Source of the DNA: a virus
Reading direction: 5' to 3' (one strand)
DNA: 64,000 nt
IMG/VR virus record: IMGVR_UViG_3300009034_000018
Span: 1-64,000 of that record
In this document: piece by piece, positions 5,374 through 53,388 of the stretch
Layout: every line of letters starts with the position of its first letter
How positions within the stretch are numbered: position 1 is the first letter of the stretch
Notes under the pieces: generated by a model
Told to the model about the DNA's origin: nothing
What the model saw: the letters and a program-made list of their open reading frames with translations, nothing else
The model's database searches: none
Made by a program: the position numbers and the translations under genes

Positions 5374-6690
5374 TTACCAATTTTCCTCAAGCATTCTTCT
5401 TTCTGAATCTTGTTCTGCTCTCCATCCTGCTTCTCCTCTTAATAATTCATTCAACCTTCGAGCACATTTACTATTTGGATCTCTTGGAACCAAAATTATC
5501 TTGTTTCCATCACATGATCTGCAAGAAATATTATATCTTCCACCCATATAACCTTCCCTGAAATCTGGATCTTGTTCGAAATCTTCATATGTCAATCCAT
5601 GTCTATCTATATCTGGATTTACATATTCTCCTCTGCCTTGACAAGACGGACAAACTTCAAATTTTGCTGGACATTGTTCTCCAGTATGTCTAATTACAAG
5701 AACCATATTGTCTTTATCTTGTATCACGCCCGGAGGATAATACGAATAATCACGAATATCTGCTTTCTTTTCTATATTTTTATCTGATTTAGATGCTTTC
5801 CCCCAACCAGTTTTGGCTCTAATCGCGAAATTCAATTCCCTGAGAAGTTCAGTGTCTTTCGGATCAGCTTTTTTGCGTTTTTTTTGTCTTTTTCTCGCTG
5901 CATTTCTTTTCTTTTTTAATTCAGATAATGAATAACCATCCCATTTGCCTGGTTGCTCGATTTTCACATCTTTCTTCCATTTTGCAGTTTTTGTTAAATC
6001 AGAAACGGATTTAGCATTTAGACCAGCAAATGGTTTATAACGATTTCCATGTAAATTCCTTCTTACCATTTTTTCTGTACACACGGGGCATATTCTATTT
6101 CCGATACCAGATGAAAGAAATCTATGATTACATTTTAAGCATACCCGATATTCTTTTTCGTCATCGCTTTGAGATGTTTTTTCTAAACTAAAAATATTTT
6201 CTGATAATACACCGAAACCACTTTCGTCTGAGTCTTCTTCTCTAAATTGATAACCTTCGGATATTGTATCTTCATCACGACCAGATTGTAATGCTCTAAC
6301 ACAGGCACGAGCATCTCCATAATCTAAACCTTTTCTCCTCATAAGCCAATTTTCAAGTTGTATTTCTCCTTTGCTTTCTAATATGCGCCTAGCTACTTTA
6401 ATATCATCAGATGATAATCCATAATCTTCTAATAGATAGTCATATTCACCGCGATATTGAGATATTTTTTCTAAGTCAAAAATAGATATAGAACTTTTCT
6501 TATCTTTTTTCTTTTTTTTCTTCTTCTTGCCTTTATTAGCTTCTCTATTTTGTTCTTTTATATGTTGTATGCATCTTTCATATTTTGCTTCATTTTCTCT
6601 ACCGACTCTATCTGTGCAAACGGCCCAAGGATTATATGGAGTTGTTTCGCTCTTAGGATACTTGCTTTTTGATGTTTTTATGATTTTCAT
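5374..6690 (-). CDS. Multi-module hypothetical (putative virion polyprotein) with zinc-finger and DnaJ-like CxxCxGxG modules
   Basis: Modules separated by SIFDLEKISQ, NIFSLEKTSQ, SVSDLTKTAK, IEKKAD; CLKC..CPVC; CPSCQGRG..CRSCDG. Confidence 0.7.
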   Translation of the reverse strand: MKIIKTSKSKYPKSETTPYNPWAVCTDRVGRENEAKYERCIQHIKEQNREANKGKKKKKKKKDKKSSISIFDLEKISQYRGEYDYLLEDYGLSSDDIKVARRILESKGEIQLENWLMRRKGLDYGDARACVRALQSGRDEDTISEGYQFREEDSDESGFGVLSENIFSLEKTSQSDDEKEYRVCLKCNHRFLSSGIGNRICPVCTEKMVRRNLHGNRYKPFAGLNAKSVSDLTKTAKWKKDVKIEQPGKWDGYSLSELKKKRNAARKRQKKRKKADPKDTELLRELNFAIRAKTGWGKASKSDKNIEKKADIRDYSYYPPGVIQDKDNMVLVIRHTGEQCPAKFEVCPSCQGRGEYVNPDIDRHGLTYEDFEQDPDFREGYMGGRYNISCRSCDGNKIILVPRDPNSKCARRLNELLRGEAGWRAEQDSERRMLEENW

Positions 6691-6762: not shown

Positions 6763-7563
6763 TTAATTGTTTGGAACATCATAGTGCGGGATGTTGTTGG
6801 TTCCCACGAAACCGAGATTATTTTCTATATCATACATCTTTCCGCCTTCCAGGCCATAATATTCGGCGTGGCCATCAGCACATAATGCATTAGTCTTGTT
6901 TAAGTGACGAAAGTGTGTTGTTGGCATAACGGCTGGGGGGCCTGTAATCGGTTCCAGATGAGTGCTATTTTGAAACCAATCTTCTCCAAATGGATTCCAA
7001 GCCATTGCTGCATCAACAAATACGAATAAGGAGGCTGGCTGTGGCAAATAAATGGAACGTTTAGGTCTTAAATCCCATTTCCACATATATGAAGCTGGAT
7101 CAAGGCACCATGTATTATATGCAAGTGTAGTCGTATGCTGTTTGACATTTCCCTGTGGTTTATAAGTCCCCCACTTCATCGATGGGCACCAAAATTGCTC
7201 TAGGCTATAATCACAGTATTTTAGAAATGGGCTATGCCTTGTATCAACTGGATCAGTATTAGTTCCCCAAAAATATGTGATTACTCCTGGTTCGGGATAG
7301 TTAGGTTTAGCTCCTGGCCAAAATGATTCTTTATTGTTGGCGTGATACGAACCCATGGATCGACCAAGACCGTTAAGATGAGCCATACAATAAGCCCGCT
7401 TGGCCAATTCCTTAGCTATGTATAGACTTGGTGCAATGATCGCTGCCAATAAAGTGATAATGCATATTACAAGTATGAGTTCTGTGAGAGTGAAACCTGT
7501 TTTACGCCGTCTTTGATTCTGAATATTTTTTGTAATATATGCTTTATCCCAATTTGCAAACAT
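6763..7563 (-). CDS. Prepilin-type N-terminal cleavage/methylation protein with H-X9-DG motif (DUF1559-like, PVC-type)
   Basis: RRKTG^FTLTELILVICIITLLAAIIAPSL, AKRAYCMAHL, FWCPS, FRHLNKTNALCADGHA. Confidence 0.9.
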   Translation of the reverse strand: MFANWDKAYITKNIQNQRRRKTGFTLTELILVICIITLLAAIIAPSLYIAKELAKRAYCMAHLNGLGRSMGSYHANNKESFWPGAKPNYPEPGVITYFWGTNTDPVDTRHSPFLKYCDYSLEQFWCPSMKWGTYKPQGNVKQHTTTLAYNTWCLDPASYMWKWDLRPKRSIYLPQPASLFVFVDAAMAWNPFGEDWFQNSTHLEPITGPPAVMPTTHFRHLNKTNALCADGHAEYYGLEGGKMYDIENNLGFVGTNNIPHYDVPNN

Positions 7564-7579: not shown

Positions 7580-8140
7580 TTATCTAATATATTTTTTTAA
7601 TAGTCCTTTTCTCTGCAAAAATCTAATTAAAGCCGAACCAGTAATCAATTCTATATATTCTTTTTCTGCTCCCCCTGTTGGATATTCCGTATAATAATCT
7701 CCTGGTTCTACAGAATGTAAACCTCTTTCTTCTGCTTGCATTTCCCATCCGACATCATATTCTTCAGGTCTTTGCTCCCAACCACTAGGAGGTTCTGTAG
7801 ATCCTGGACATCCTTTTATTTTGACTAACATTCCGTGATTACGTATATCATTTACAGAAACACCTTCACCCCACGATTTACCAAGCTTTTCTCTAATATG
7901 ATGTAACATAGCATTCACTGCGCTTCCTAAGTTTTCTTTATCAGTAGCAAAAGACAATTCTGCACACACTTCTTCTATATCTAATCCTGCTGCTGCATAT
8001 TCACTGCCATAGGCATCTTGAACAAACTGTCCCACAGAAGGAAATAGTCCTATTTCGCCAATAGATGGAGCATGATCAATAATAGTACCGTGATATAAAC
8101 TCCTGTCTGCTATTTTTCTAATTTTATTATACCAATTCAT
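7580..8140 (-). CDS. ADP-ribosyltransferase/Tpt1-like fold protein with MNWY leader
   Basis: LYHGT...IGEIGLFP...LSFATD motif order typical of H-x-x ART folds. Confidence 0.45.
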   Translation of the reverse strand: MNWYNKIRKIADRSLYHGTIIDHAPSIGEIGLFPSVGQFVQDAYGSEYAAAGLDIEEVCAELSFATDKENLGSAVNAMLHHIREKLGKSWGEGVSVNDIRNHGMLVKIKGCPGSTEPPSGWEQRPEEYDVGWEMQAEERGLHSVEPGDYYTEYPTGGAEKEYIELITGSALIRFLQRKGLLKKYIR

Positions 8141-8497
8141 TTATTCTTCCCAAGTATATTGTGGATATTCTTCCATTTTTCCAAAAACAATTTCTGGAAT
8201 ATCATCCCCCCATTGATCAGCAGTTATATCTAATATCTTTACACCGTCTGGTGTCCAAACATCTAACCATGCATGGCGGTTCCCATTAAAAAACCCAAAC
8301 TGCACAGCGCAAATAATACCCAGATCAGTTAAATTTTTTTGTAACTCATAAGAAGCATCTAAACATTTATCTTGGTTAGAACAATTCGGATATTTAGAAC
8401 GTATGCGTTTTGCTTCTTGTAAAGCAATCTGTTCTACTGGCTGACCGTGATATAAACTCTTGTCTGCTATCTTTTTAATTTTATTATACCAATTCAT
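8141..8497 (-). CDS. Papain/transglutaminase-like fold protein with MNWY leader
   Basis: C-H-D triad pattern: KCLDAS, RHAWL, ILDITADQW. Confidence 0.6.
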   Translation of the reverse strand: MNWYNKIKKIADKSLYHGQPVEQIALQEAKRIRSKYPNCSNQDKCLDASYELQKNLTDLGIICAVQFGFFNGNRHAWLDVWTPDGVKILDITADQWGDDIPEIVFGKMEEYPQYTWEE

Positions 8498-8500
8498 TAT

Positions 8501-9508
8501 TTAAAGCCATGTTTTATATGGTCTTCGTCTAACAATTTCATTAACACGTTCTTCTGGTGTCAATTTTCTCAATTCCATGGGAAGGACATATTCATCACAA
8601 ATCTGACACCAGTGCCAACCAGGACCAACTGCATCACACATCGAATGTTCATAACATAATTCCAATCCACATTCTGGACATTCAAAATAAGGTTTTTCCT
8701 CTTTAGATGCTAAATGGATATTTATTAAAGGAATTTGCATATCTTGTTGTAATACACTATCTAATCTTAATTCTGTATCTGTAGATGCTGGATTGCGTTT
8801 TTTCTTTTTCTTCTTCTTTTTTCTCTTTTTAGCATATTTATATAAATCGAAAATATTTCTTCGTGTATTTGCATACGAATGCATTTCAATAATATCGCCC
8901 GTTTCTATTGCTTGAAATGGAACATCGGTATAATATTTATTGGAACTATAAACATAAATATTAAAATTAGAGTTAATAACGACATCATCATATGCATCAT
9001 ATAACCCATTAGCGATATCTCTTAAATCATTTTCTTTCAAGAACCATGTTTCTATATTGTCTTCTTCTAATCTTTTCCAGCCCCAATGCTTCATGGCAAA
9101 TTCTCTTGCATCGCCCTGCCCTTTTGCTATTTCAAAATATTCTGGTTCTATTCCTAGTTCTTCTAAGTTGTCTCCAATTAATTCATATGCATAATAACTA
9201 GTATTCTTAGACATTTCCCAGATTTCATAAATCTGATCGTCTATGTCTTTTATGTCACCTGGCTCTTCTGTATCTAACTTTTTTTCTTCTAATTCTTGCT
9301 TTTTTTCTTCTAATATTTCTAAAACAGTTTTATTTTTCCATTCTTCCCAATCTTCTTCTCCATTTATAATTTGACTTTGAACAACTTCGATGACATATGC
9401 TTCATGATTATAATCTCCAATATCTCCATCTGCAAACATAGCAGTTCCATCATGAATCCAAAATTCCCCTCTCATTTCTGCATATTTACATAAATTAAAG
9501 ATATTCAT
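8501..9508 (-). CDS. Hypothetical putative virion protein, two modules, C-terminal zinc ribbon
   Basis: MNIFNLCKYAE and internal RNIFDLYKYAK; acidic core; CPEC..CQIC. Confidence 0.7.
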   Translation of the reverse strand: MNIFNLCKYAEMRGEFWIHDGTAMFADGDIGDYNHEAYVIEVVQSQIINGEEDWEEWKNKTVLEILEEKKQELEEKKLDTEEPGDIKDIDDQIYEIWEMSKNTSYYAYELIGDNLEELGIEPEYFEIAKGQGDAREFAMKHWGWKRLEEDNIETWFLKENDLRDIANGLYDAYDDVVINSNFNIYVYSSNKYYTDVPFQAIETGDIIEMHSYANTRRNIFDLYKYAKKRKKKKKKKKRNPASTDTELRLDSVLQQDMQIPLINIHLASKEEKPYFECPECGLELCYEHSMCDAVGPGWHWCQICDEYVLPMELRKLTPEERVNEIVRRRPYKTWL

Positions 9509-9543: not shown

Positions 9544-9963
9544 TTATTGCATAACATTCTTTAATTGTGTTATTAAAAGAGCAGCATCTGAAAATAGAGA
9601 TGCGTCATGTAAATAACCAGCAGCTTCTAGTGCAAATGACAATCTCATCAATTTGTCTAAATCATTTTGTGATATGTTATTTAAAACAGATTCCATTTCT
9701 GGCGAAATTCGTCTTTGCCCGACAAAAGGTTCGTGTGCTTTCTTTTTAACTTTTTTTTCCATTTCTATAAGGTGATCATAATATTTAGGATCTTCCGACA
9801 AATGATCCATAGCTATCTCTTCAGCAATTTCTTCATCGTTAGTATGTTCTGATTCAATTTTAACTCCTTTTTGCAATTGATTTTGGTCAAAGTCTTTAGG
9901 ATATTTTTTATCTGCCAGTCCACCTATAAGTCTATTATATTTTTTTGATTTGATTACTTTCAT
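9544..9963 (-). CDS. DUF5661-like phage protein
   Basis: LIGGLAD..P.DFD..QL.KG..IESEHT....IAEEIAMDHLSEDPKYY motif. Confidence 0.7.
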   Translation of the reverse strand: MKVIKSKKYNRLIGGLADKKYPKDFDQNQLQKGVKIESEHTNDEEIAEEIAMDHLSEDPKYYDHLIEMEKKVKKKAHEPFVGQRRISPEMESVLNNISQNDLDKLMRLSFALEAAGYLHDASLFSDAALLITQLKNVMQ

Positions 9964-12335: not shown

Positions 12336-13208
12336 TTAGGATGCAGTTGTTATTTCGATCAGGCTGATTGCATAGTCGTTAAGAACGACGATGCCCACTT
12401 CTTCGTAGATTACCCAGCCGAGACGAAGTTTCTTTGGATCATCAGCAGGCAAAACCGTAATATCCTGACGGATTGGGAACGCGCCCACGGTATCAGGCGA
12501 AGCTACTAACAACACAACATCTGTATCCATACGACTTGAAACGTGTAAATCAGCGGTCCACAAGTGACCATACAGACCGGTTGTTATGATTTCTCTTTGA
12601 GTTGCCTCATCATAGAAATCTTTTCCGAAAATACGGATAGCAGCGAATTGTGTTGCATGCATAACTAGTTTTGTGCAAACCAGATCATGCGACTCAATCA
12701 GCCTGAAGCCAGTGTTCAGAGAGTTAACAGTCAATGCACCAACATTAACAACAACTTGTGTGCCAAGCGTTGTTGCAGCAGCAGTAAGTGCGTTGAAAAT
12801 ATTTGTATCTTCTTCCTTCTGAATCGCCTCTTTTGCCTTGATCTGTGCACGGTCAACTATATAGAATCGACGTGCTTTGATTTCAGACAATCTCACCGTT
12901 GGGTGAGCAGCAATTTCGAAGGTAGGAACAAGCACTTCTTCACCCTCTTGAATTTGATCAGGGACAGCACCACGGCGAGAGATAACGTGAGCAATTGCAG
13001 CCACGTCACGTTCATATCTAGCCAATGCGCCCTGTGGCAGTTCATCAACCATCAGAAGTTTACGACCAACAGCCTGGTATTCCAAGGAACGACGAATAGG
13101 TTCAACCATTGCCTGCGCCAAAGCCACACGCCCTTCATCGGTATTTAATGCAGCTTCAATAACAGCTAGTTTTTCTTGGTCTGTTAGACCGTTTTTCTGA
13201 ATAGCCAT
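12336..13208 (-). CDS. Major capsid protein (HK97 fold)
   Basis: ALAQAMVEPIRRSLEYQAVGRKLLMVDELPQGALARYERD, VPTFEIAAHP, GWVIYEEVG; last gene of the head module, strong SD and a terminator. Confidence 0.88.
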   Translation of the reverse strand: MAIQKNGLTDQEKLAVIEAALNTDEGRVALAQAMVEPIRRSLEYQAVGRKLLMVDELPQGALARYERDVAAIAHVISRRGAVPDQIQEGEEVLVPTFEIAAHPTVRLSEIKARRFYIVDRAQIKAKEAIQKEEDTNIFNALTAAATTLGTQVVVNVGALTVNSLNTGFRLIESHDLVCTKLVMHATQFAAIRIFGKDFYDEATQREIITTGLYGHLWTADLHVSSRMDTDVVLLVASPDTVGAFPIRQDITVLPADDPKKLRLGWVIYEEVGIVVLNDYAISLIEITTAS

Positions 13209-13856: not shown

Positions 13857-16800
13857 TTACCTACCAAACTCCCTACGGAGTTGTATATCATTATCCTTTT
13901 GAGCCATTTGATTTTTACGGTCTAAGCTAAACATCGCTGTCAATTTATCGACCAACTCTTGCTGAGGGTCGTTTTGCACAGGCTGATTGCTTGCCTCTGA
14001 TATAATCACGGATTGCTCTACTCCGTCAGGTGAATCTTTGAGTCCTTTATCACTTTCAAATATATTACTTTCAATATCTTTTAATTGTTCAGTTTTATAA
14101 GATTCTAATTCTGCAATTTTATTAGACAACTCATCAACAGTTATCTTGCCAGCTTCAAGCATTCTTCCGGCAAGTCGAGTTGCTTCTTTCTTTTGTTCTT
14201 CTGATCCTGCATGTATTCCGCCAAGAATATTACCCGTCATTTCATCATCTTTTTCTGGTTTTAATTTTTCATTGTCTTTTTCTCCGCTAATTCTATCATC
14301 TTTTGTTGGAATATTAGGGGTATCTTTTTCATCTGGTTTATCACCGATAGATTCTTTTTCATTTCCAACGAATGCTTCGTCAGCAGGAACTTTTTGGTCT
14401 TTAGCTGGTTTTGCGGCAGGAACTTCACCTATAGAAGCTTTTTCATCTCCTATAAAACTATCACCGGAATATGGTTTAATATCTTCTGCATCTTGGTCGA
14501 ATCGTCTTTTTACTTTTGTTTGGGCTTCTAAAATTGCATCTGCTAATATTCCTATTCTTGCTTTTGTAGAAGCTGCTCTTGACGATCCTTGTCCTAATTC
14601 GCCACCAGTTGCAGTATCATCTAATTCTGGTTTGAATTCTGGTTCTTCTTTTTCTCCTCCCATTCTTGCATCTGATGCAGGTGCATTTGCTTTTTCTGCA
14701 GTTGGCGGTTCTTCATGCCCCATTTTGGCTGCATCGCCTTTTGATGGTGCACTTGGTTTGTCTGCACTGAATGGATCTTCATCGCCGATACTATCGCCTT
14801 TACTATATTGGAAAGGAACAACGTCTTGAGCGGGTTGTATTTTAATAGTATCAGCTTCTTTATTAATTAAGCCGGAAAGCTTAGAAAAATCTAGATGCGT
14901 AACTTCACCTGTCTTGCCGACATAACTGGCTTTCATGATTGATGCTTCTTTTTCTGAATATGCCATTGTTTGTGTTTCCTTATCTGTTTCGCTTTCGTCA
15001 CCTTCTTTTTCTACTGGTTCATCTGTTTCTTCTGGATTCATAACTCCAGGATTATCATTTTCTTCACTATTCGCTTCTTTCTTAGATTTTCCTTCTTCTT
15101 CTGCACATTTTCTTTCGCATTCTTCTTTACATTTTTCAACTTCTGTTTTTTCTTTATCTTTTCCATCTTCTTCAACTTCGACATTTACTTCAACTTCTCC
15201 ACCTTCTTCGGCTTTAACTTCGCCGCCCTCTTCGGGCTTAACTTCTCCACCTTCTTCCGCAGACAATGGAGCAGAAACACATTCTTTTGTTTCTTCTTCA
15301 ACATCAACAACTTCATCAACTGGTTCTTCTGGAACAACTTCTTCACCGACTTCTTCTACTTCATCAACTACTGGTTCTTCATCAACTACTGGTTCTTCAT
15401 CAACTACTGGTTCTTCATCAACTGGGACTTCCCCTAATTCTTCTGCTACTTCTTCTTCTTTGCCAAGAGCTTTAACCAAGTTTGCTAAAGCTTCTGCAAC
15501 TTCATCGCCACCGATTCCAACAACTTCGTCTTCTGGTTCCATTGGTTCTTCCACATCTTCTTCCACATCTTCTTCTACAAATTCGTCACCGAATGGATCT
15601 TCTTCTAAATCAGTTACAAGTCCATCGCCCATTTCATCTTCCATAAATGCACTTTCAACTTCTTCTACAAGCTGTTGTGCAAATATGTCGTTGAAAGAAG
15701 CATATTTAGATTTTAAAGATTCACAAACAGTAGTTGCTTCCTTCAAATCTAAGCCCATTCTCACATAGTCTTCAAGACATTCAGTAGATGCTTCTTTATC
15801 TTTCCATACATCTGCAACTTTAACTGCAAGACCATTCGAATAAATACCAGCTTTCTTTAATGATTTGCAAATACATTCAGCAAGTGGACTTCCTTCACAT
15901 GGACCACTTAATGCGATGGCTTCTTCTCCATAGCGACGAGACAATCTTTCCAAACAGCTTTCCATTGGGAAATTATTATCAAGGTTAACAGCAGTTTTAA
16001 TTTGGTCTAATATTCTTTCTTTCTTTTCAGCAGAAGCTGTTTTCATCGGCTTCAGTAAACCAGCTTGTTTCATAGAAAGAATTAACTCTCCTTTTTCTTT
16101 CATGCCCATAGCATCGAAATTTTCTTCATCAACATTCATTTCTTTTAGTGCTGCAACAAATTTCTTATGGGATTCTTTACACTCTGGACACTCCTTATTT
16201 ACTTCTGGAATCCATGTCCACTGTGCATAAACTTTTTTAGGATCTCGTCTCCTAAAGGCATATTCAATTGTATAAACATTGCCTGTATCTAGACACAAGT
16301 AGTTATTATCATCTAGTTTTATTGTATTTGTGGAACCAGTTAAGGGGCTAATTGAGCCAAGCTGGACTTTCGCTTCTTTGATAACATTAAGCATTTCTGG
16401 CTTAATAAGTGTCACTGCAGCAAATTTAACTGGTCCAGATATATTTTCTTGTGCTGCTTCCTTAATTTGACGGTCATTTTTTGTACTAGCTGCAGCAGGC
16501 ATAGGAACCGTGCCAGCAGTACCAGCTTCAGGAACCTCTGGCATTTCAAATCCTTCCCCACCTTCACCTAGTTCTTCTTGACCAGCAGGTTGTCCATCGT
16601 TTATATTGCTTTCGAGCGTACCTGGCCAATTTGGAACTTCAACCAATACCTTATAGTTCCAATCAGCAGTACAGTTATTACAATGTCCATTTCCTTTAAT
16701 AACGTCAACATCTTCGCTACCACAAACTGGGCATGCTCCCCCAGGTGGTTTAGGCTGGAGATCGCCTTCATCTTCGAATTCTCCTGCAAGATCTGATTGT

Positions 16801-19800
16801 TCAAAGCTTTCTACTGGTGGTTGTCCACCTGCTGCTGGAGGTTGAGGCATTGTTGCACCGGCACCAGGCCCTTGTGCTGCTCCTGCTTGTCCTCCCATTT
16901 CTCCGCCAAGAAGTTGTGCTTCTCTTACCATTTTATCTCTATCTGATTTTTTAGAAGCAGATTTTTCGTTTGTTTCATTAGATTTGCCTTCAACATACGG
17001 ACGAGCTTTATTCCAAGCTTCTTTTTCCTCATCAGTCATTAGTTTAGAGTCTTTAAGTGTTGCAACGACTAATTTCTTATCAGTATCCACATCAACATTA
17101 ATTAATGCAGTTTCGATATCTCCGACTTCTTCAGAGATTTTCTTATTTGCAAATTTATATGCTGCTACAGCAATAGCCTGTTTGTCCTCAGATTCTGCAT
17201 TAATTTCATCGATAGATGCCTGTACTTGATACAAACCATCTTCTGGTTTTTCCATAGATTTAAGCGCTTCGTCCAAAGCAGATATTTTATCTAATTCATT
17301 TTTATTCTCTGGTGTAGTTGCCATCTTTTCAGATGCTACTTTTTCTATATTTTTATGCAATTTTTCAGAGGACATGATATAATCTACAGCGCCAATTAGA
17401 TCGTCAGCGCTTAGATCGCTAAGATTATCGCTCATTGCAACGATTAAAGCATCTACTGTATCAGGTGTCTCAACTGGTTTAGATGCCAACTTAGACAAAT
17501 AAGTATATCTGGTTTTTTCGTTTGCTCTGGCTTCTGCCTTGTGAGGCATCGCATTAACTACCATTAAAAATGCAGTCTTATCAAGATTTCTAGTATCTTT
17601 CTTAATGAACGAAGTAGCTTTTTTGATTTCTTGCGGTGTTTTACCATAATAAGCTATGGTGTCAGAAATAGCCTCGGTTGCAGCTTTTATAAGTTTGTCA
17701 GCTTCATATTGATAAGCCCAGCGAGAAAGATCAGTTGTCTGTGCACCTAATTGTTTTTCCGTTATTACTCCGAGAGCAGGGAACTGGTGGTGAGACATGA
17801 AATCAAGAAGTTGCTTTTCTGTTATTCGATTATCCTGATCATTGCTTAATTCAGAACCAATCCATCGACTTACTTCAGACCACTGTTTTTCTGTAATTAC
17901 ATGTGGAAAATCATTCCATCGTACAACATGAGTGCCTTTGATATTATTAAATTGTTTCTCTGTAATAACCTTGCGTGGATCGTCCTGTCTTGGTTGTGGG
18001 CTTTCACTAGTTGTAACATTCACATCTCTTTCTGGATTTTCCATTTGTTTTTCTGTGATAACATTTGGACCGCCATCTTGACGTTCTCCAGTAAATTTAG
18101 CTTCGTCAAGTTGCTTTTCTGTGATTACACCAACACTGTGTTCTTGGTCATTAGCAACTTTTTCATTATCATTTTGATCTTTTCCTGTCTTTTCATTAGT
18201 CATAGCAATTGACTCCTTATTAATTGTTGTATCACTATTTTTTGTATTTATAAGATTTTCCTGTAGTATTTCCAATCTTTTAATCATATTACTGGCAATT
18301 CGCAGAAATTCCTTCTTTTTTATATTGTTTATATCCATATTCCCAGAGAACTTAGGCTTAGTTATGCTTCCAATATCTCCTATTTGTTCAGTCTCAACAC
18401 CTGGAGAAATTTGTTGTGGCTGCTGTCTTCCCATTGGTGGAATTTGTTGTGGTACACCACCTGCTGTCGTTTCTTCTATTTTTTCAAGTTCTTCTGAGGT
18501 TTTTGGCAGTTCTACATCTTCAACTCCTGTTGTATCAGGAGAAGGTAATTGTCCATATCCCATTTCTGTTAATTCATCTGCAACTGATTGGACACTAGCC
18601 AAAACGTCTACAAGATCGCTTACATATGTCATAGAAATTTGTTTCTTTTGACTCATCATGCTTTTAGCGACAGTCTCTATTTTATTCATTACTTCGCTTA
18701 AATATTCTAATTCTTTTGACCCAGCGATCTTCTCAATACTACATGAGCCATCACACGAAGCAGCTTTTATCAAATTGCCTATTTTATCATGTATTTCTGC
18801 CATTTTTCTATTCATGCCAGATGGATTTAATATATCATGAACGATACAGTTCTGACATGCTTGATTAACAACAAAAGAATCTTCTATAAATTTAATTCCA
18901 TAATTCCACTCAAATATTCGAGTTTCACTGTGTTTAATCGTTTTTGATTCATCTGCTTTTTTACCACAAAGCGGGCAATCATCTTTTGGTTTACTTGGAC
19001 TATCATGATATTTGCATTCTATAGTTCCACTAATCTTTTTGTTTTTTCGTTCTTTAATACAAGAGCAATATTCATCGGCAACATGAGCTTTATTGTGACA
19101 ATAAGAACAGATGGAATATTCTACGGAACAATTATGAGTCGCTATTCCATTTAATATATAACTATGATCACTTTCTTTATTATTTATTTTGCCAACTTGT
19201 ACATAATATGTTGGTTCATTATTTTTTATAACTTTTATGTTCTTTATTCTATGTGCCATATATGTTCTATACGGGAATGAAATAAATATGGACTTTCTTA
19301 TTTTTGGGCCATTAAATACTTTATAACTATATTCTTTAATTTTTGGTGATATAGAATTATTTATATATAATTGATATTCAGTATATTCAAAATCTTCTTT
19401 CATAACAGTAGAGCTTTTAGCTATTCTGTCATGTCTGCTTAAAACGGCTGGGACTCCTAATTGCAAACATATTTTTCTTGTGTCGGAAAGTAAATTTTTG
19501 GAAGCAGATGATATTTGGACAGCACCTTTACCAGAACTGTCATTGCTCGGATTTATAATACATCCATCACCATCTACATAAGCAGCCAAAAATATTTTTT
19601 TCTGTTGTTTTGGAAGACTTAATATTTTATTGTTTATTCTTTTACTATGGCTTCCACATCCAACGTATTTCTCACATATTTTAGCAAGATTAGAATTCCA
19701 TGAAATTAAATAAAGACCATTTCTTTCTGGTTTTCTGTCTATTCTTAACCTGTTTTTTGGATATTTTTTTTGTAAAATTGTTTTAAGCTTATTAAAATTA

Positions 19801-20744
19801 GATTTCTTGTTTTTTTCTTCATCTAACCCGAAGCAAAAGCATAATGATTTACTTCCGTTTATATATCCTTCTGCTGTATAAACGCCAAGGATATAAGCAA
19901 TATCATCGTCTATGTCATTTTCAGCGTTTTCTGATTGACAAATATATTCTAATACAAAATCCCCCGGTTTCACCGAATTAGCAGGCACAAAAACTGGATC
20001 AATTTTTTCTATATCTTTTACGGATTTTCTATATTTTTTTCCATTTTTACAATAATGATATAAATCTTCATGTTTTAATATCAAAACTGGATGTTCATAA
20101 CTTAAAGCTAATCCATCCATATTACTCATCCATTGTATCAAATAAAGCTCATCATGTTCTTGTGTTTTACATATAATTTCTATTTTTTCTGTTTTTCCTG
20201 TATGGGTTATTACCTTATCATTTTTTTGTAATTCATCTACTCTTTTTAATGAATGGTCCGACATAGATACTAAATCATGTCCACGAGAAGCTCCCATCGA
20301 GGTTCCCAAAATATATTTTTCTTCAATTCCTCTTGCCAATGGTGGATATGCCACCCTATCTATCATAGAGATGATCCAAATGCCCCCTGCCTCTTTATCG
20401 TACCACGAATGAACACATTTTCCCTTAGCTTTTTCAACATCATCATTTTGATGATTAGTAAACACAGGAACATTAACAAATGTTTCTGCTGCTTTTGATA
20501 GTTCTTCTCCTGAAAACGCATCTCCGTTATCATTAACTTCATCTTCTTCAATGGCAAAGATTTTAATGAACAGGTGATCTGGATGTTCTTTAATTTCTTT
20601 ATCTAAGTCAAATCCATTTAAATCAGTAGTGTTCTTGTTAACAGATGCGAATTTAAGTCTGTTTAAATTATATTCATACCAATCTGGTTTATTCAGAGGT
20701 TGTATGTTTTTTATAATAAAATTCTCTCTTATTTTTTTTATCAT
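13857..20744 (-). CDS. Prohead protease / giant scaffold polyprotein with intein
   Basis: N-terminal NDNGDAF..FTNHQNDD..GTSMG protease-like region; intein; CxxC modules; ITEKQ repeats; long acidic low-complexity C-terminus; located upstream of decoration protein and MCP. Confidence 0.8.
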   Translation of the reverse strand: MIKKIRENFIIKNIQPLNKPDWYEYNLNRLKFASVNKNTTDLNGFDLDKEIKEHPDHLFIKIFAIEEDEVNDNGDAFSGEELSKAAETFVNVPVFTNHQNDDVEKAKGKCVHSWYDKEAGGIWIISMIDRVAYPPLARGIEEKYILGTSMGASRGHDLVSMSDHSLKRVDELQKNDKVITHTGKTEKIEIICKTQEHDELYLIQWMSNMDGLALSYEHPVLILKHEDLYHYCKNGKKYRKSVKDIEKIDPVFVPANSVKPGDFVLEYICQSENAENDIDDDIAYILGVYTAEGYINGSKSLCFCFGLDEEKNKKSNFNKLKTILQKKYPKNRLRIDRKPERNGLYLISWNSNLAKICEKYVGCGSHSKRINNKILSLPKQQKKIFLAAYVDGDGCIINPSNDSSGKGAVQISSASKNLLSDTRKICLQLGVPAVLSRHDRIAKSSTVMKEDFEYTEYQLYINNSISPKIKEYSYKVFNGPKIRKSIFISFPYRTYMAHRIKNIKVIKNNEPTYYVQVGKINNKESDHSYILNGIATHNCSVEYSICSYCHNKAHVADEYCSCIKERKNKKISGTIECKYHDSPSKPKDDCPLCGKKADESKTIKHSETRIFEWNYGIKFIEDSFVVNQACQNCIVHDILNPSGMNRKMAEIHDKIGNLIKAASCDGSCSIEKIAGSKELEYLSEVMNKIETVAKSMMSQKKQISMTYVSDLVDVLASVQSVADELTEMGYGQLPSPDTTGVEDVELPKTSEELEKIEETTAGGVPQQIPPMGRQQPQQISPGVETEQIGDIGSITKPKFSGNMDINNIKKKEFLRIASNMIKRLEILQENLINTKNSDTTINKESIAMTNEKTGKDQNDNEKVANDQEHSVGVITEKQLDEAKFTGERQDGGPNVITEKQMENPERDVNVTTSESPQPRQDDPRKVITEKQFNNIKGTHVVRWNDFPHVITEKQWSEVSRWIGSELSNDQDNRITEKQLLDFMSHHQFPALGVITEKQLGAQTTDLSRWAYQYEADKLIKAATEAISDTIAYYGKTPQEIKKATSFIKKDTRNLDKTAFLMVVNAMPHKAEARANEKTRYTYLSKLASKPVETPDTVDALIVAMSDNLSDLSADDLIGAVDYIMSSEKLHKNIEKVASEKMATTPENKNELDKISALDEALKSMEKPEDGLYQVQASIDEINAESEDKQAIAVAAYKFANKKISEEVGDIETALINVDVDTDKKLVVATLKDSKLMTDEEKEAWNKARPYVEGKSNETNEKSASKKSDRDKMVREAQLLGGEMGGQAGAAQGPGAGATMPQPPAAGGQPPVESFEQSDLAGEFEDEGDLQPKPPGGACPVCGSEDVDVIKGNGHCNNCTADWNYKVLVEVPNWPGTLESNINDGQPAGQEELGEGGEGFEMPEVPEAGTAGTVPMPAAASTKNDRQIKEAAQENISGPVKFAAVTLIKPEMLNVIKEAKVQLGSISPLTGSTNTIKLDDNNYLCLDTGNVYTIEYAFRRRDPKKVYAQWTWIPEVNKECPECKESHKKFVAALKEMNVDEENFDAMGMKEKGELILSMKQAGLLKPMKTASAEKKERILDQIKTAVNLDNNFPMESCLERLSRRYGEEAIALSGPCEGSPLAECICKSLKKAGIYSNGLAVKVADVWKDKEASTECLEDYVRMGLDLKEATTVCESLKSKYASFNDIFAQQLVEEVESAFMEDEMGDGLVTDLEEDPFGDEFVEEDVEEDVEEPMEPEDEVVGIGGDEVAEALANLVKALGKEEEVAEELGEVPVDEEPVVDEEPVVDEEPVVDEVEEVGEEVVPEEPVDEVVDVEEETKECVSAPLSAEEGGEVKPEEGGEVKAEEGGEVEVNVEVEEDGKDKEKTEVEKCKEECERKCAEEEGKSKKEANSEENDNPGVMNPEETDEPVEKEGDESETDKETQTMAYSEKEASIMKASYVGKTGEVTHLDFSKLSGLINKEADTIKIQPAQDVVPFQYSKGDSIGDEDPFSADKPSAPSKGDAAKMGHEEPPTAEKANAPASDARMGGEKEEPEFKPELDDTATGGELGQGSSRAASTKARIGILADAILEAQTKVKRRFDQDAEDIKPYSGDSFIGDEKASIGEVPAAKPAKDQKVPADEAFVGNEKESIGDKPDEKDTPNIPTKDDRISGEKDNEKLKPEKDDEMTGNILGGIHAGSEEQKKEATRLAGRMLEAGKITVDELSNKIAELESYKTEQLKDIESNIFESDKGLKDSPDGVEQSVIISEASNQPVQNDPQQELVDKLTAMFSLDRKNQMAQKDNDIQLRREFGR
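15361..15423. repeat. 18-bp tandem repeat (3.5 copies) encoding EEPVVD
   Basis: tcatcaactactggttct x3 plus a partial copy. Confidence 0.9.
19131..20291 (-). mobile_element. Intein (387 aa) with LAGLIDADG homing endonuclease, Ala at position 1
   Basis: GTSMG|ASRGHDLVSMSD...VITHTG...SYEHP...LGVYTAEG...FLAAYVDGDG...GIATHN|CSVEYS. Confidence 0.9.
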
Positions 20745-28336: not shown

Positions 28337-28888
28337 TTAGATCCATTGATCATGCGCTTTCCTGTTGCGTCTATTTCTTATTCTTTGTTTATATTCTTTT
28401 CTCCTTGGTGAAAAATTAAATTTTGGTGTAAACTGATCACCTTTAAATTCATATTTTTGCACATTTTCCAATCTAAAAGCTCTTATGCTTTCGATTGTTT
28501 CATCCCAAGTAACAAGAATACGCTTTAAAGTAGTTCTTGCCCAAAAATCTCCGTGAGGTTCTATATCTCTAATAATAAAAGTCCCATTCACGGTTATATA
28601 ATATATTCTAAGAACTTCTCTATTTTCTTTTGCCCATTGAAAAGCCTGAGACAATGTTCTAAACTCAGGGTATTCCTCTGGTTCTATTATTTCTTCTTCT
28701 ACTTCTGTTGGCACTTCTCCTTCTTTTTCTTCTATGGTATCTACCAGATAATCTTCATAAATATCATCTGGCGTAATAGTTTCTAATTCTGTACCAGGTG
28801 CATCTTCTCTTTCTTGAAACGGAAAAACATTATAAAGAGCAAATGGATAGAACATTTGAGCAATTTTTTTTGTGCGTATAACTTTCAT
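28337..28888 (-). CDS. WYL-domain protein
   Basis: LRIYY.T..G....RDIEPH...ILVTWD....IRAFRLENV. Confidence 0.7.
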   Translation of the reverse strand: MKVIRTKKIAQMFYPFALYNVFPFQEREDAPGTELETITPDDIYEDYLVDTIEEKEGEVPTEVEEEIIEPEEYPEFRTLSQAFQWAKENREVLRIYYITVNGTFIIRDIEPHGDFWARTTLKRILVTWDETIESIRAFRLENVQKYEFKGDQFTPKFNFSPRRKEYKQRIRNRRNRKAHDQWI

Positions 28889-29305
28889 TTAACTAAAAAT
28901 ATCCTTAAGACTTATATTAAAATCATCTTCACCAGGATTAAATATAACTATATCTGCGTTATCTTCATAATCTATTTTTACGGCATCACCCACTTTGATG
29001 CCATTTGAACGAAAATAGCCATCATTTGCTTCAATTGCCATTACACAATCTATATCACTACCTATAACAGAACAGGAATTTGGTTTGATTCTGCCTATTT
29101 TAACAATCTTGTTTTCAGAAGATATAAATGCTATATCTAAAGGTAGATAAGTATTTAGGCCCCAAAATTTTAAAATTTGAGGTTCATGAAATTTAAATAA
29201 CATGCCAGCATATCTTGGTAAATCTTTTCTGAACATTAATCCATTTCTTTGCTTGTATGGAGTATCCGCAATTTCAACATATAAAGTTTTTTTATTATTT
29301 GACAT
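28889..29305 (-). CDS. DUF192 family protein
   Basis: VEIADT...R..GLMFR..LP...GMLF.F...FW..NT.LPLDIAFI. Confidence 0.9.
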   Translation of the reverse strand: MSNNKKTLYVEIADTPYKQRNGLMFRKDLPRYAGMLFKFHEPQILKFWGLNTYLPLDIAFISSENKIVKIGRIKPNSCSVIGSDIDCVMAIEANDGYFRSNGIKVGDAVKIDYEDNADIVIFNPGEDDFNISLKDIFS

Positions 29306-29775
29306 TATAAAATCCTATGTCTAATTCCGTTTCTTTCTAAGTCATATATAAAATTCTCTATTTCATCGTCTTGAACAATAAACAGAACATCATCATTATT
29401 GGAATCTTCTATTGTCGCAGTAGTATCATTGTAATTAGAATATTTATCAAACCATCGTTTCACTTTTTCTGGTGTAGTATCATCTACATAAGTTATTTTT
29501 TCTAAAATCTCCGGTTCTGGGCGCATCATATAAGACTCTTGGACACCAAATCGTTTAATCTGGTCTTCTGTCGCTTCATCTTTTGGCATTCTGCTAATGA
29601 GTATTCCATTAGAAGTAATTTCTACATATTCTTCTAATCGCGAATAGAATCTTATTCTTGTAGCTTCAAACTTTAGCATTTTTTTATAAAACGCATCATA
29701 CCAGAACAATTCGTTTTTAATAGGAACTTTTGCCAGCATTTTTCTTATTGGAGTATATACTAATATCTTTTTCAT
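29305..29775 (-). CDS. Hypothetical protein
   Basis: 156-aa ORF, translationally coupled to its neighbour. Confidence 0.7.
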   Translation of the reverse strand: MKKILVYTPIRKMLAKVPIKNELFWYDAFYKKMLKFEATRIRFYSRLEEYVEITSNGILISRMPKDEATEDQIKRFGVQESYMMRPEPEILEKITYVDDTTPEKVKRWFDKYSNYNDTTATIEDSNNDDVLFIVQDDEIENFIYDLERNGIRHRIL

Positions 29776-29778
29776 TTA

Positions 29779-30588: not shown

Positions 30589-31079
30589 AATTGTTTTTTT
30601 CTTGCCTTGAAAGAAACTCTAAAGTGTATTCTCCTTTTTTTATACCTTGCAACGCATCGATAAATTCTTTTCTTTTTTATTTGTTTTTTTCTACTATAAT
30701 TATTATATAATCCAGCCAGGTTATAGATTTCTTCGGCAGAATATTTTTTTAACTCAGTATATATCATCATATATACTTTTTTCTTATATTTAATTAAATG
30801 TCTCAACATTCTTCTTCTTCCTCTTGGATTCTTAGAATGTAATATTATCGGAGTTAATAAGGCCATTTTTTGGTATTTCATTTCTTTTGCCAGATGCTCT
30901 CCATGTTGGTCTTTTTTTTCTAAGTCTCTATCTAAAAAAATTAAGTCAAATCGTCTTTTACTTATATGTCGTATCGCTTCTTCTATGTTGTCAGTGACAA
31001 AGATATAATCATTTTTAAAGGTTTTTCTAAACCATTTAATTCTGTCTTTATTATCTTCTAATATAAAAATTTTAAACAC
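30585..31079 (-). CDS. Cyclic-phosphate-processing receiver-like domain protein with basic tail
   Basis: IFILEDN..R..WF, FDLIFLDRDL, GEHLA, IILHSKNPRG. Confidence 0.75.
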   Translation of the reverse strand: MFKIFILEDNKDRIKWFRKTFKNDYIFVTDNIEEAIRHISKRRFDLIFLDRDLEKKDQHGEHLAKEMKYQKMALLTPIILHSKNPRGRRRMLRHLIKYKKKVYMMIYTELKKYSAEEIYNLAGLYNNYSRKKQIKKKRIYRCVARYKKRRIHFRVSFKARKKQL

Positions 31080-31172
31080 ATCACTCTCCTGGAATAATAT
31101 ATTTCTTATATTTTTAGTTTATTCCTTGTTATGGCCATCTAGAAAGTATATGTCTCTTTTATTTGCCAAAAG

Positions 31173-31862: not shown

Positions 31863-31994
31863 TATACCTCTTCAATATATAATAAGTTTCTTATTATCGT
31901 ATCGGGAAAATTAGACTATTTTTTGTATTAAAAAAGTAATTTTTTTTTCAGATATGTTTTACAATTCAGATAACAAGTCTATTGCCAAATTTCG

Positions 31995-32817: not shown

Positions 32818-33567
32818 TTATGCTGGCATATGTTCGTATTCTTGTTCCTTCCATCGTTTCCTTTCTTTCTCTCTTTCTTTTTTACTTTTATTCTGATGTA
32901 AATTTATGGGTTCCCCATCCTTATTAAATCCATGAATTTTATATAAATTTACAAATCTTTCGTTTTCTGTTGGCATTAACTCTGCCATTTTTATCTGAGT
33001 GTCAATTTTTGCTTCCCTGATACCAATCGTTATGTGAAAATCATGTCCTTTATCCAAATAAGTTGGTGGCAGATTATATTTCTTTCTTATTTTTTTAATT
33101 TCTGGTACATCTACGGCAACAAACCATACTCTGTTTACCTCATCCCAACTAGCAGGATTTGTAGAATACATTTCCTTTAATCCGAATTCAATCTCTTTCC
33201 CAATTTCATCAATTTTTATATCATCTGTTATTTCTTCGTTAGAAATAGCAGAAATATGAGCGCCTATTTTATCATCACCCTTACCAAAATATGGTGGTTC
33301 TTTTGCATTATCATCTTTATCTATCAACGGAAAAAGTCCATGTATAATACTATCGTTAATATCGATATATACGAAATCATCATCTGTTTGTTTTAGTTTG
33401 CCTTTTAGTTTTTCTTTTTTCAATCTAGCAGCTTCTTTATGTAACGGTCCAAAATCCATATTAGCAAGCATTAATGTAACATGGTCAAATGGTTCAAGTA
33501 AGCTCCAGTGTCTTTTCAAAGATTTTTTGTTTCTTCTTTTTGCTTTTTTGGATTTAAGGACTTTCAT
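32818..33567 (-). CDS. 2H phosphoesterase family protein
   Basis: Paired H-x-[ST] motifs GAHISAI and DFHITIG; FVYIDI..PPYF. Confidence 0.75.
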   Translation of the reverse strand: MKVLKSKKAKRRNKKSLKRHWSLLEPFDHVTLMLANMDFGPLHKEAARLKKEKLKGKLKQTDDDFVYIDINDSIIHGLFPLIDKDDNAKEPPYFGKGDDKIGAHISAISNEEITDDIKIDEIGKEIEFGLKEMYSTNPASWDEVNRVWFVAVDVPEIKKIRKKYNLPPTYLDKGHDFHITIGIREAKIDTQIKMAELMPTENERFVNLYKIHGFNKDGEPINLHQNKSKKEREKERKRWKEQEYEHMPA

Positions 33568-34268
33568 TACCCCACTTCCTCATTAATGCCAGCCAATTTT
33601 TTCTTCAAAATAGGATGCTTTTTGATTCTCTCTACCTTCTGTTCTTCGTCAACAAAACTAACAGTTTCTTCTTTCTTATCATAAATTACTTTTGGCATCG
33701 GCAAAGATTTTTTAGCAACCTTCTTCGTGGTTTTCTTTTTGCCTTTCTTGGTTGATTTTTTGTCTTTGCCTTTTGCTGCAGACTTATTTTTTGGTGGGCG
33801 ACCTCTTCGTTTCGCGGTTTTTTCAGACTTTTTGTCATCGACTTTATCAAAATCTATGTCATCACCTTGTAATACATCTAATTTAGAACTATTCAATTGT
33901 TGTAACGCTTTCTTGGCACCTTCTGTTCTTGCATCCAATAATTTTTTCTCATTTCCGTCCCAGACAACGGGAGTAGTTGGTGTGTCATAATCCGAAGGAT
34001 CTATATCTTTTGATTCAGTCGGTTTGAGTTCGAGTTCATCATCATCATTATCATCTAATTCTACTTCTATTTCAATTTCTTCTGCTTCTTCATCTGTTTT
34101 TTCTTCTGTTAGTAATTGTTTTGCCAAACAGACCTTGATAGATGAATGCTGAAAATCTTCGTCTGACAATATAATAGTCATACCAGCCTTTAAAGTTCTA
34201 TTTCCTAACATTTGAAGAACTAATTCGCCTCGAAAATCGTCATTTACCTTTAATACATGATTAGCCAT
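33567..34268 (-). CDS. Hypothetical protein with AT-hook and Lys-rich (H1-like) segment
   Basis: KRRGRPPK followed by KKSTKKGKKKTTKKVAKK. Confidence 0.65.
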   Translation of the reverse strand: MANHVLKVNDDFRGELVLQMLGNRTLKAGMTIILSDEDFQHSSIKVCLAKQLLTEEKTDEEAEEIEIEVELDDNDDDELELKPTESKDIDPSDYDTPTTPVVWDGNEKKLLDARTEGAKKALQQLNSSKLDVLQGDDIDFDKVDDKKSEKTAKRRGRPPKNKSAAKGKDKKSTKKGKKKTTKKVAKKSLPMPKVIYDKKEETVSFVDEEQKVERIKKHPILKKKLAGINEEVG

Positions 34269-34776
34269 TATATACTCCTTTCACTCTGTTTTTTAACTTC
34301 ATAAATAAATTTTTATGTGCCCTGTTTCTAACTTTTTCTCCTAAATTATCATTCATATTATGTACGCCGCGTGGATCATCGCCGAATACCTCTTTATCAG
34401 TCGGAATTTTATCCCTATAATCTGTAAATTCTTGTTTGTCTGGATCAAGACCAGTTCCTGTTCCTTTCATTGTTTCATCGTGATCACCGACAAACATAGA
34501 ATCATATTTTGGAATATCTCTCTTTCTTTGTCTATTAAATTGATCAGATTTAGAGCTAAACCCACGCGGATATCCTTTTCTCGCTGTTGTCCCACCCATC
34601 GATGCTGATCCACTCCCCATATCTCCTGCTCTTACTCTATATGTTATACCTGTACTATTTTGTTCAAGACCGGGTTCAGAATGATCATAAGGATTTTGTG
34701 GCAAATTCATTCTTTCTATATTGCCTCTAATAGCAAGTACAATATTTTTTGCTTTTTTAGTCTGTATTGTCTTCAT
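34261..34776 (-). CDS. Hypothetical protein
   Basis: 171-aa ORF overlapping its neighbours. Confidence 0.7.
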   Translation of the reverse strand: MKTIQTKKAKNIVLAIRGNIERMNLPQNPYDHSEPGLEQNSTGITYRVRAGDMGSGSASMGGTTARKGYPRGFSSKSDQFNRQRKRDIPKYDSMFVGDHDETMKGTGTGLDPDKQEFTDYRDKIPTDKEVFGDDPRGVHNMNDNLGEKVRNRAHKNLFMKLKNRVKGVYNG

Positions 34777-52677: not shown

Positions 52678-53388
52678 ATGAACTGGTATAAAAAATCATG
52701 GAATATGAAGAACTTTTTTAAGGGAATTGGAATAGGCGCTTTGTCTCTTCCATTTATGCTTATATTTTTGAATATGTCTGATGAAGACCTTAAAAATTTA
52801 TATATACAGGAACAAGGTGACGAAATCGCTGTAAAGAAAGAATTAGAAAACCGACTGCAGAAGAAAATTCAAGAGAAATTTGATTATAAACAATTTTCTG
52901 ATCACATTAAAAAATATGAGGGTTTTAGGAACGAAGTATATGATGATGGAAGAGGAAATGCAACGATTGGAATTGGACATTTGATCACCCCTCAATCAGA
53001 GAATATTTTTACTGGTTTATTCGGTGATAATATCAATTACGACGATATAGTATCTGGCAAATCTCAATTGACAGACGAACAAGTATATCAATTAGCTGAA
53101 TATGATATTGAAAAGCATTTGGGGAGAGCAAGATCTATATTCCCAAGATTTGATACATATCCGTATTACTTACAACAAGCTTTATTAAACTCTGTATATA
53201 GAGGGGATACTGGTCCTAAAACAATTAAATTAATCAATACTGGAAAATTTAGAGAAGCCGCCAAAGAATATTTAAATAGATATGATTATAACAATGCAGT
53301 AGCTCTTGGTATTCGTGGTATTAAAGCTAGGATGGAAGCAAATAGAGATGCCATGTTAAATTATGCGAATGAGTTAGAAGGTAAGTAA
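52678..53388 (+). CDS. Lysozyme (GH24/T4-type) with MNWY leader and hydrophobic segment
   Basis: IKKYEGFR..VYDD..G..TIGIGHL (E-X8-D-X5-T). Confidence 0.88.
   Translation: MNWYKKSWNMKNFFKGIGIGALSLPFMLIFLNMSDEDLKNLYIQEQGDEIAVKKELENRLQKKIQEKFDYKQFSDHIKKYEGFRNEVYDDGRGNATIGIGHLITPQSENIFTGLFGDNINYDDIVSGKSQLTDEQVYQLAEYDIEKHLGRARSIFPRFDTYPYYLQQALLNSVYRGDTGPKTIKLINTGKFREAAKEYLNRYDYNNAVALGIRGIKARMEANRDAMLNYANELEGK

Follow-up and report, generated by a model that had tools for sequence, protein, structure and literature searches.

Probable Copying of the 5′ End of an ADP-Ribosyltransferase-Fold Gene onto a Transglutaminase-like Gene in a Relative of Bacillus Phage G

Results

The DNA analysed here, called the window below, is positions 1 to 64,000 of the IMG/VR virus record IMGVR_UViG_3300009034_000018 (74,058 bp) and can be assigned by its sequence to an uncultured phage akin to Bacillus phage G, with genomes of about 460-550 kb among its relatives. 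Two adjoining open reading frames (ORFs) on the minus strand are the subject of this study: geneA (8141..8497, 118 amino acids), predicted to encode a grafted leader and a minimal transglutaminase-like (YunG-like) domain, and geneB (7580..8140, 186 amino acids), predicted to encode a single-domain protein of the ADP-ribosyltransferase (ART) fold. An earlier note on this DNA pointed out that their 5′ ends are nearly identical. By alignment, it was found that codons 1 to 18 of geneA (8444..8497, minus strand, MNWYNKIKKIADKSLYHG) and codons 1 to 18 of geneB (8087..8140, minus strand, MNWYNKIRKIADRSLYHG) agree at 51 of 54 positions, with a spacing of 357 nt. The identity runs from the ATG through codon 18 (GGT, Gly) and stops there. 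The geneB copy, probably the source, consists of a lineage tag and the start of the first ART strand. Sixteen of the first 18 residues are identical between the two proteins, and the three nucleotide differences correspond to R8K, a silent change at K9, and R13K. A BLAST search inside the 74-kb record retrieved the second copy with an E value of 3.4e-20; neither BLAST nor a six-frame motif scan found a third copy in that record.

Past residue 18, BLASTP detected nothing significant between geneA and geneB. Thus, simple paralogy was rejected, in line with the note's view that the two bodies are not homologous. An assembly artefact or chimera at the repeat was also rejected as unlikely, because the three differences leave a longest exact common word of only 22 nt. 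GeneA has no other in-frame ATG, GTG, or TTG before residue ~108. Therefore, a start at an internal codon was rejected, and geneA owes its start codon to the copied segment.

GeneB has 14 homologues of 171-239 residues in metagenomes. All of them begin with MNWY..(A/S)E.(S/T)LYHGT, in which LYHGT is invariant. An AlphaFold (AF2) model of geneB has a predicted local distance difference test score (pLDDT) of 85, with residues 1-10 below 50. When the model was compared by VIA-align, the top 50 rows were all ART-superfamily chains. The best row was KptA (9ld3_A; Z 7.9, root-mean-square deviation 2.8 Å, 86 residues aligned, 24% identity), and the nicotinamide adenine dinucleotide (NAD) lobe of KptA/Tpt1 was followed by TreX, PltA, pertussis S1, and DarT. 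The geneB family profile matches Tpt1 at LYHGT..I..G[LI].P (E 0.0034), which is the sole sequence-profile match. ARTs of the H-Y-[EDQ] triad type have the His in strand 1, the aromatic residue in strand 2, and the acidic residue at strand 5. In geneB, the invariant H17-G-T falls within strand 1, strand 2 has F or Y at position 64, and E145 and D148, both invariant, lie beside strand 149-151 (near strand 5). The modelled fold is that of an ART of the split beta-sheet NAD-binding type, nearest to the NAD lobe of Tpt1/KptA, and geneB is thus a predicted accessory ART-fold enzyme. The HGT-type ART-like domain proposed in the note, with HG[ST] in the first strand, stands at the level of fold. As for known families, geneB aligns only to the C-terminal lobe of KptA (residues ~91-180), so that the two-lobe architecture of Tpt1/KptA is absent from it. 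The Pfam family of Tpt1/KptA, PTS_2-RNA (PF01885), gave no match to geneB, and only one of 15 homologues reached E 0.065. Nor did geneB match ART-PolyVal (PF18760) in Pfam; set profile to profile against three tagged ART-PolyVal proteins, it aligned at the tag and YHGT only (probability 63%).

A word-indexed search with geneA gave no match. An exhaustive HMMER search revealed 34 relatives, nearly all of them proteins of ~100 residues that match residues ~20-118 only. The leader is absent from all 27 aligned homologues, and the closest one (P0017, 61% identity) begins with MIDADIM. Two long multi-stretch candidates (P0032 and P0033) were discarded as spurious; they are lectin and beta-helix proteins. 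C45, H75, and D90 are invariant in the 28 sequences of the geneA family. The geneA model has a pLDDT of 89.8, with residues 1-20 at ~66. The highest-scoring VIA rows for it are TglA (Z 10.6), LapG (Z 9.4), arylamine N-acetyltransferase (Z 8.3), and transglutaminase (Z 7.7), and the structural matches also include SseI and protein glutaminase. The geneA profile aligns with TgpA of P. aeruginosa at E 7.5e-4, with Cys, HAW, and Asp in register. Eight of the 28 family members match Transglut_core (PF01841) weakly (best E 2e-4, 22 bits against a cut-off of 23), and four of the 28 match the YunG family (PF24585). The predicted fold of geneA is a minimal transglutaminase-like one with the Cys at a helix N-terminus and the His and Asp on adjacent strands, as the note's papain/transglutaminase-like assignment had anticipated. 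GeneA may therefore be regarded as a small predicted Cys-His-Asp enzyme.

Some results weigh against both fold assignments, and the scores of the fold searches are middling. In Foldseek searches against the PDB, neither model had a match at E ≤ 1e-3: the top rows for geneB were ARTs but all at E > 0.01, and those for geneA (TG3, FXIII, 3isr, and TglA) had probabilities up to 0.98 with E > 0.1. Neither protein has a match at the Pfam threshold, and PHROGs gave nothing usable either. The basis of the fold calls is the make-up of the hit lists, together with the Z scores from VIA-align and the profile matches.

Which gene was the donor? Since all 14 geneB homologues carry MNWY...LYHGT, the shared segment is the native N-terminus of geneB. 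The last five residues of this segment are part of the first ART strand. Asn5, Ile7, Ile10, and Asp12 are common to both window copies. Position 12 is Glu in at least 90% of geneB homologues and Asp in both window copies, and Asp12 and others of these residues were found in no other geneB homologue. Thus, the copy seems to have been made in this lineage, from this phage's own geneB. The gene order is also informative. In contig L017, a GEFWID gene, homologous to the 335-residue gene upstream of geneA in the window, directly abuts the geneB homologue; compared with this arrangement, geneA is a 357-bp insertion consisting of the 54-nt repeat and 303 unique nt.

These results very strongly suggest a leader graft in which geneA took the first 18 codons of geneB. 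The note spoke of a duplicated leader; copying is upheld, and its direction can now be set as from the ART gene to the transglutaminase-like gene. The course of events was probably as follows. The native N-terminus of geneB consists of a short lineage tag (MNWY..K.A[E/D]) and, directly after it, the first ART strand (SLYHGT), and homologues of geneA elsewhere begin with short N-termini of their own. Codons 1-18 of geneB would then have been copied onto geneA by local duplication or gene conversion, which would have supplied geneA with a start codon and a tag. The copying probably went 6-7 codons past the tag, into the ART core, and left a functionless remnant, (K/R)SLYHG. The note had called LYHG in geneA a recombination scar, and the sequence agrees: it is native to the first ART strand in 14 of 14 geneB homologues, and in geneA it can be read as an overshoot scar, a foreign remnant of that strand.

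Such grafts are apparently not confined to the window. In L016, two genes with unrelated bodies 2 kb apart (5368 and 7484) share an extended 5′ identity of 54 nt (MNWYKRASKRVLIAV), and an orthologue of one of the partners in L015 (3150) has a different leader, VNWYRKFSDV. Extended 5′ identities between genes with unrelated bodies were also found in L079 (36-37 nt) and L055 (35 nt). Thus, 5′-end grafts between unrelated genes appear to recur in other contigs, and the idea, already in the note, that new cargo is recruited by leader copying is supported. The repeated tag DNA at many gene starts may drive the exchange of 5′ ends.

Is the leader itself limited to these two genes? The note suggested searching related phages for it on other domains, and such a search found a core tag, M-N-W-Y-K-[KRQ]-A-[QKS], although its positions 5 and 7 are partly set by the search pattern. 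At least 138 tagged ORFs (≥ 50 residues) in relatives of phage G fall into at least 77 BLAST clusters when the first 14 residues are removed. A degenerate DNA pattern retrieved 58 IMG/VR loci, many on contigs of 330-548 kb. Consecutive unrelated MNWYK genes number at least 11 in L016, six in L015, five in L017, and three in L011. The three complete genomes have 7, 12, and 14 tag sites in a few clusters, against 0-2 for a control pattern. Pfam domains among 86 tagged proteins are AAA_33 kinases, ART-PolyVal, GNATs, DUF5661, Tad6, Acb1, 2H phosphoesterase, cREC, UvrD helicase, PcfJ, SLT, cell-wall hydrolase, and nucleotidyltransferase. The note's leader cassette must accordingly be divided: its first ~8 residues look like a lineage-wide tag, and only the extra ~10 codons appear to be a local copy. 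Literature searches for the string MNWYK and for conserved N-terminal tags of huge phages returned nothing relevant or pertinent.

A third MNWYK-tagged gene of the window (52678..53388, plus strand) has an MNWYKK tag, a hydrophobic segment, and a phage lysozyme domain (PF00959, E 9.5e-8). In L012 and L014, a homologue of this lysozyme gene lies directly upstream of the geneB homologue. The 335-residue GEFWID-family gene (8501..9508, minus strand) has a decayed leader, MNIFNLCKYAE; its alignment with an MNWYK-tagged homologue in L016 begins at residue 1. Its own leader is repeated, as 8822-8857 and 9470-9505 are 81% identical at the DNA level (repeat D3), and this can be counted as one more case of grafting, in the window itself. 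After the GEFWID domain, this ORF has a second leader (NIFDLYKYAKK), about ten Lys codons, and a Cys-rich zinc-ribbon module, and so looks like two tagged genes fused in frame; homologues such as the 239-residue one in L016 stop before the second module.

The window also has five genes beginning with a second tag form of the MK[VI]IK[ST]KK type, two of which are homologous to MNWYK-tagged genes elsewhere. The DUF5661 gene (9544..9963, minus strand) has the form MKVIKSKK, and its homologue elsewhere is tagged with MNWYKQAK. A 438-residue multi-module ORF (5374..6690, minus strand) starts with MKIIKTSK, and its first module is homologous to a 48-residue MNWYK-tagged protein. This module (NPWAVCT..YERC) exists as the stand-alone 48-residue protein in L048. 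The same ORF has a poly-Lys tract and internal motifs, IFDLEKISQ and IFSLEKTSQ, that resemble the decayed leader. The remaining three genes are a 2H-SAK phosphoesterase gene inside the head module (32818..33567, minus strand, MKVLKSKK), a gene with MKVIRTKK (28337..28888), and a gene with MKTIQTKK (34261..34776).

In phage G, MKRL[IVM]K was found at six or more gene starts, while the control gave 0. MKRL[IVM]K(K) heads gp13, gp17, gp38, and gp53 (L103, NC_023719 9298-38131) and four more genes at record positions 73330, 207449, 244460, and 446709. The gp53 protein (MKRLVK..LMHGT) has an HGT-type ART-like start and a weak PARP match (E 2.5e-4); that it is a geneB homologue could not be shown (hhalign probability 4.5%). 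The text of the phage G particle proteomics study (PMC12484599) does not refer to the tagged genes. In other jumbo phages, the sequence immediately in front of (K/R)TLYHGT in distant geneB homologues is MIKLK.LL.E or MKL.DL.E, a local tag that recurs on the neighbouring genes. Thus, other phage lineages have a different tag before the same ART domain.

Some tag copies occur in unusual positions. In L071 (2423-6700), L088 (4331-8575), and L099 (2424-7016), an SNF2/ResIII helicase of ~1200-1300 residues runs in frame into ..S[ST]E-MNWYKNAS and a following module of ~235 residues, with no stop codon between. These joins are either a conserved fusion or an internal start. Copies reading INWYK.. 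(L015 6214, L016 536, and L017 6048) have ATA or ATT in place of the ATG and a stop only a few codons upstream and may be unusual starts, decaying copies, or cases of translational coupling.

The wider context of the locus is as follows. The major capsid protein gene of the window (12336..13208, minus strand) encodes a protein with 54% identity to the gp27 major head protein of Bacillus phage G and 79-82% identity to those of three complete relatives (461-548 kb). The island of tagged genes lies directly downstream of it on the same strand. In one relative, G002, the region downstream of the capsid gene has different tagged genes, and the island is thus variable. Profiles of geneA and geneB gave no match in the three complete close relatives. 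Against phage G they gave no homologue, only a 32-residue LYHGT-like match, and a tblastn search with geneB against GenBank phages gave no match.

GeneA is followed by geneB, and directly downstream of geneB is a gene (6763-7563, minus strand) for a 266-residue protein with a prepilin-type N-terminal methylation motif (PF07963, E 6e-4), which looks DUF1559-like. This gene could hint at a host in the Planctomycetota-Verrucomicrobiota group. Elsewhere in the window, a 2295-residue ORF of the head module (13857-20744, minus strand) and a 1022-residue ORF (35533-38601, minus strand) have LAGLIDADG and intein-splicing Pfam matches inside, and both are likely to contain inteins. A portal-like protein with a weak Portal_Mu match (21691-23997, minus strand) has a C-terminal DUF559/Vsr-like endonuclease domain (E 1.5e-9). 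Within the head module (28889-33567, minus strand) lie DUF192, a tandem pair of cREC receiver domains, and the 2H-SAK phosphoesterase.

Discussion

The explanation that I favour, with odds slightly better than even for the whole of it, is that the graft gave geneA a peptide tag that loads accessory enzymes into the procapsid. As an address, the tag would direct enzymes unrelated to one another, both accessory and counter-defence, into the procapsid, so that they would be delivered together with the DNA. Taken singly, the proposal that the tag is a capsid-loading signal like the capsid-targeting sequence (CTS) of phage T4 is an analogy whose chance I put somewhat below one half. Like the carriers of the CTS, unrelated non-essential proteins of one phage have a short N-terminal peptide in common. 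The cleavage rule of gp21 is L/I-x-E, and the three distant phages with tags ending in L-x-E all encode a T4-type Peptidase_S77 (PF03420) prohead protease. These tags and the S77 protease together point to head assembly, at least for that branch. The position of the island next to the capsid gene, in the window and in G002, also fits the analogy.

Several observations speak against capsid loading in the present lineage. Peptidase_S77 (PF03420) was not found in this contig or in the complete close relative G001. No acidic residue is fixed at the would-be cleavage site of the general MNWYK tag; the window copies read I-A-D, and the geneB homologues I/L-A/S-E. Thus, the combination of an L/I-x-E tag end with a gp21-type (S77) protease, as in T4, was not found in this lineage. 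The tag also heads the lysozyme with a membrane-type segment and the large helicase fusions, and many tagged genes lie far from the head module in the complete genomes.

Much of this would suit a peptide signal for something other than the capsid, such as recognition by a phage-encoded protease, unfoldase, chaperone, or modifying enzyme, or a membrane or localisation signal that keeps a group of accessory proteins co-ordinated. The occurrence of the tag on the lysozyme with its hydrophobic segment, on cytoplasmic-type enzymes, and on helicases, as well as the distance of many tagged genes from the head genes, fits such a role. Phage G is reported to encode ClpP and ClpX (PMC12484599). The evidence for a peptide-level element given below (codon choice, Met-less internal copies, and the synonymous codons of phage G) applies equally to this alternative. 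I nevertheless consider it unlikely, roughly a one-in-five matter: no partner gene travelling with the tag was identified, and where geneB has T4-type relatives, their tags close with the prohead-protease motif and the phages encode that protease.

Does the conserved element act as a peptide at all? The element might instead act at the nucleic-acid level, as an initiation region, as an operator for a RegA-like repressor, or as a recombination hot spot, with the peptide being incidental. This is consistent with the rather uniform DNA of the MNWYK core (AAC 24 vs. AAT 9; TAT 31 vs. TAC 2) and with the few tag copies that have ATA or ATT at the start position, both of which count against a purely peptide-level role. 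In addition, no obvious Shine-Dalgarno sequence precedes many of the tagged genes, whose ATG overlaps the stop codon before it as ATGA, and the repeats clearly mediate 5′-end exchange. However, the sequence 5′ of the tag ATG is not conserved. Codon 2 in the three complete genomes is Asn (ATGAAY...) in 33 cases and Lys (ATGAAR...) in only two, though AAR is as AT-rich as AAY. In the MKRL[IVM]K form of phage G, the codons for Arg (AGA/CGT) and Leu (TTA/CTT/TTG) differ between copies. Met-less NWYK copies, which cannot be initiation sites, lie at module borders in larger proteins, for example a PolyA_pol+HD enzyme, a zeta-like kinase, and a PcfJ protein, and in three contigs an SNF2 helicase continues in frame into an MNWYKNAS module. 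Moreover, the position in front of LYHGT is occupied by a different peptide in each lineage. It is therefore improbable that the element acts only as nucleic acid, and I regard a peptide-level signal as probable, at about three chances in four. Finally, the 54-nt identity could be a neutral by-product of recent illegitimate recombination that recruited nothing and left a chimeric, possibly non-functional and decaying geneA, as the LYHG remnant without a structural role in geneA (residues 1-20 have the low pLDDT given above) and the dispensability of geneA and geneB, both absent from the three complete close relatives and phage G, would allow, but this is the least probable alternative, since the geneA ORF is intact, keeps the Cys45/His75/Asp90 triad and all other family-invariant residues, is still 61% identical to its closest homologue, and is joined in frame to its only start codon, and similar grafts recur in other contigs.

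Megaphages have hundreds of unexplained genes, and these would become easier to approach if a tag readable from sequence marked out a coherent class of accessory enzymes. The tagged class includes ARTs, GNATs, kinases, Acb1- and Tad6-like anti-defence proteins, and lysozymes. To this, the present locus would add an evolutionary mechanism, in which repeated tag DNA lets the 5′ end of a neighbour be copied onto a new gene body, and the LYHG overshoot would both date and orient the copying event. The contribution of the locus thus lies in the mechanism and direction of tag spread, in two fold assignments, and in several tag forms within one genome. The locus also supplies two compact, uncharacterised families of predicted enzymes, a one-lobe Tpt1-like ART and a transglutaminase-like domain of ~100 residues.

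A wider and more doubtful proposal, to which I give well under an even chance, is that MNWYK.., MK[VI]IK.KK, and MKRLIKK are forms of one programmable address tag, which loads a large and fast-changing library of counter-defence and host-modifying enzymes into the capsid for co-injection and whose cargo is recruited by 5′-end grafting between tagged neighbours. If this were true, the set of effectors injected by a megaphage could be read from sequence, and the present locus would have caught a grafting event in the act. Bacillus phage G, as a culturable relative, offers a direct test system for the tag hypothesis.

Comparison with Known Systems

Each of the two proteins resembles a known family in part. 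Tpt1/KptA is the best structural match of geneB, but geneB corresponds to the ART lobe only, without the N-terminal RNA-binding lobe that bears the Arg-His-Arg-Arg tetrad. GeneA shares its predicted fold with the superfamily of transglutaminase-like cysteine proteases (TgpA, TglA, LapG/BTLCP, and YunG-like PF24585) and matches the triad pattern of that superfamily (G.C...S, H.W[VL][ED]VW, and [LV]D.T.DQ[FW]G). By this likeness, it might be a protease, a deamidase, or a cross-linker. It differs from the Transglut_core superfamily in being a minimal domain of ~100 residues that falls under the Pfam thresholds.

The note described the two bodies as toxin-like and the arrangement as polymorphic-toxin-like. 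Polymorphic toxins indeed combine a constant N-terminal part with swappable C-terminal enzymatic warheads, including ARTs and papain/transglutaminase-like peptidases, and are diversified by recombination. However, these labels are too loose for the present locus. Polymorphic toxins have an N-terminal secretion or trafficking domain and an immunity gene downstream of each module, whereas no secretion or trafficking domain, immunity gene, or start-less orphan cassette is present here; geneA and geneB are followed by geneB and the prepilin-like gene, respectively. The constant part here is 8-18 residues long rather than hundreds, and the conflict would be that of phage against host, not of bacterium against bacterium.

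Polyvalent proteins belong to phages and conjugative elements, and their delivery together with the DNA has been proposed (Iyer, Burroughs, Anand, de Souza, Aravind 2017; PMC5512222). Their domain set resembles that of the tagged proteins (ART in the form of ART-PolyVal, GNAT, SNF2 ATPase, lysozyme/SLT, zeta-like kinases, and peptidases), and some tagged modules form parts of larger ORFs in which the tag marks the joints. In contrast to one giant polypeptide, the cargo here is mostly separate small genes, each of them tagged. PMC5512222 describes no shared N-terminal tag, and geneB is not a member of ART-PolyVal.

In T4, the CTS, which is cleaved off by the prohead protease, serves diverse internal anti-defence proteins as well as the ART Alt (PMC3012670, PMC5694885). 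On IPI, IPII, IPIII, and Alt, it is an N-terminal peptide of ~10 residues on unrelated, dispensable, host-directed proteins, one carrier being an ADP-ribosyltransferase; the cargo varies between related phages, as at the variable internal-protein locus of T-even phages, and the genes lie beside head genes (PMC3012670, PMC5694885). The tags here resemble it in these respects, and the L-x-E-ending tags on distant geneB homologues in S77-encoding phages extend the likeness. The sequences differ, being MNWYK[KRQ]A.. and MK[VI]IK.KK here and MKRLIKK in phage G, with neither a fixed terminal Glu nor an S77 protease found in this lineage. The scale is also larger here, with 7-14 or more genes per genome and at least 77 cargo clusters. 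By analogy, the logic of the locus would be closer to that of the T4 capsid-targeting sequence on variable internal proteins and Alt, combined with the domain set of polyvalent proteins, than to that of polymorphic toxins.

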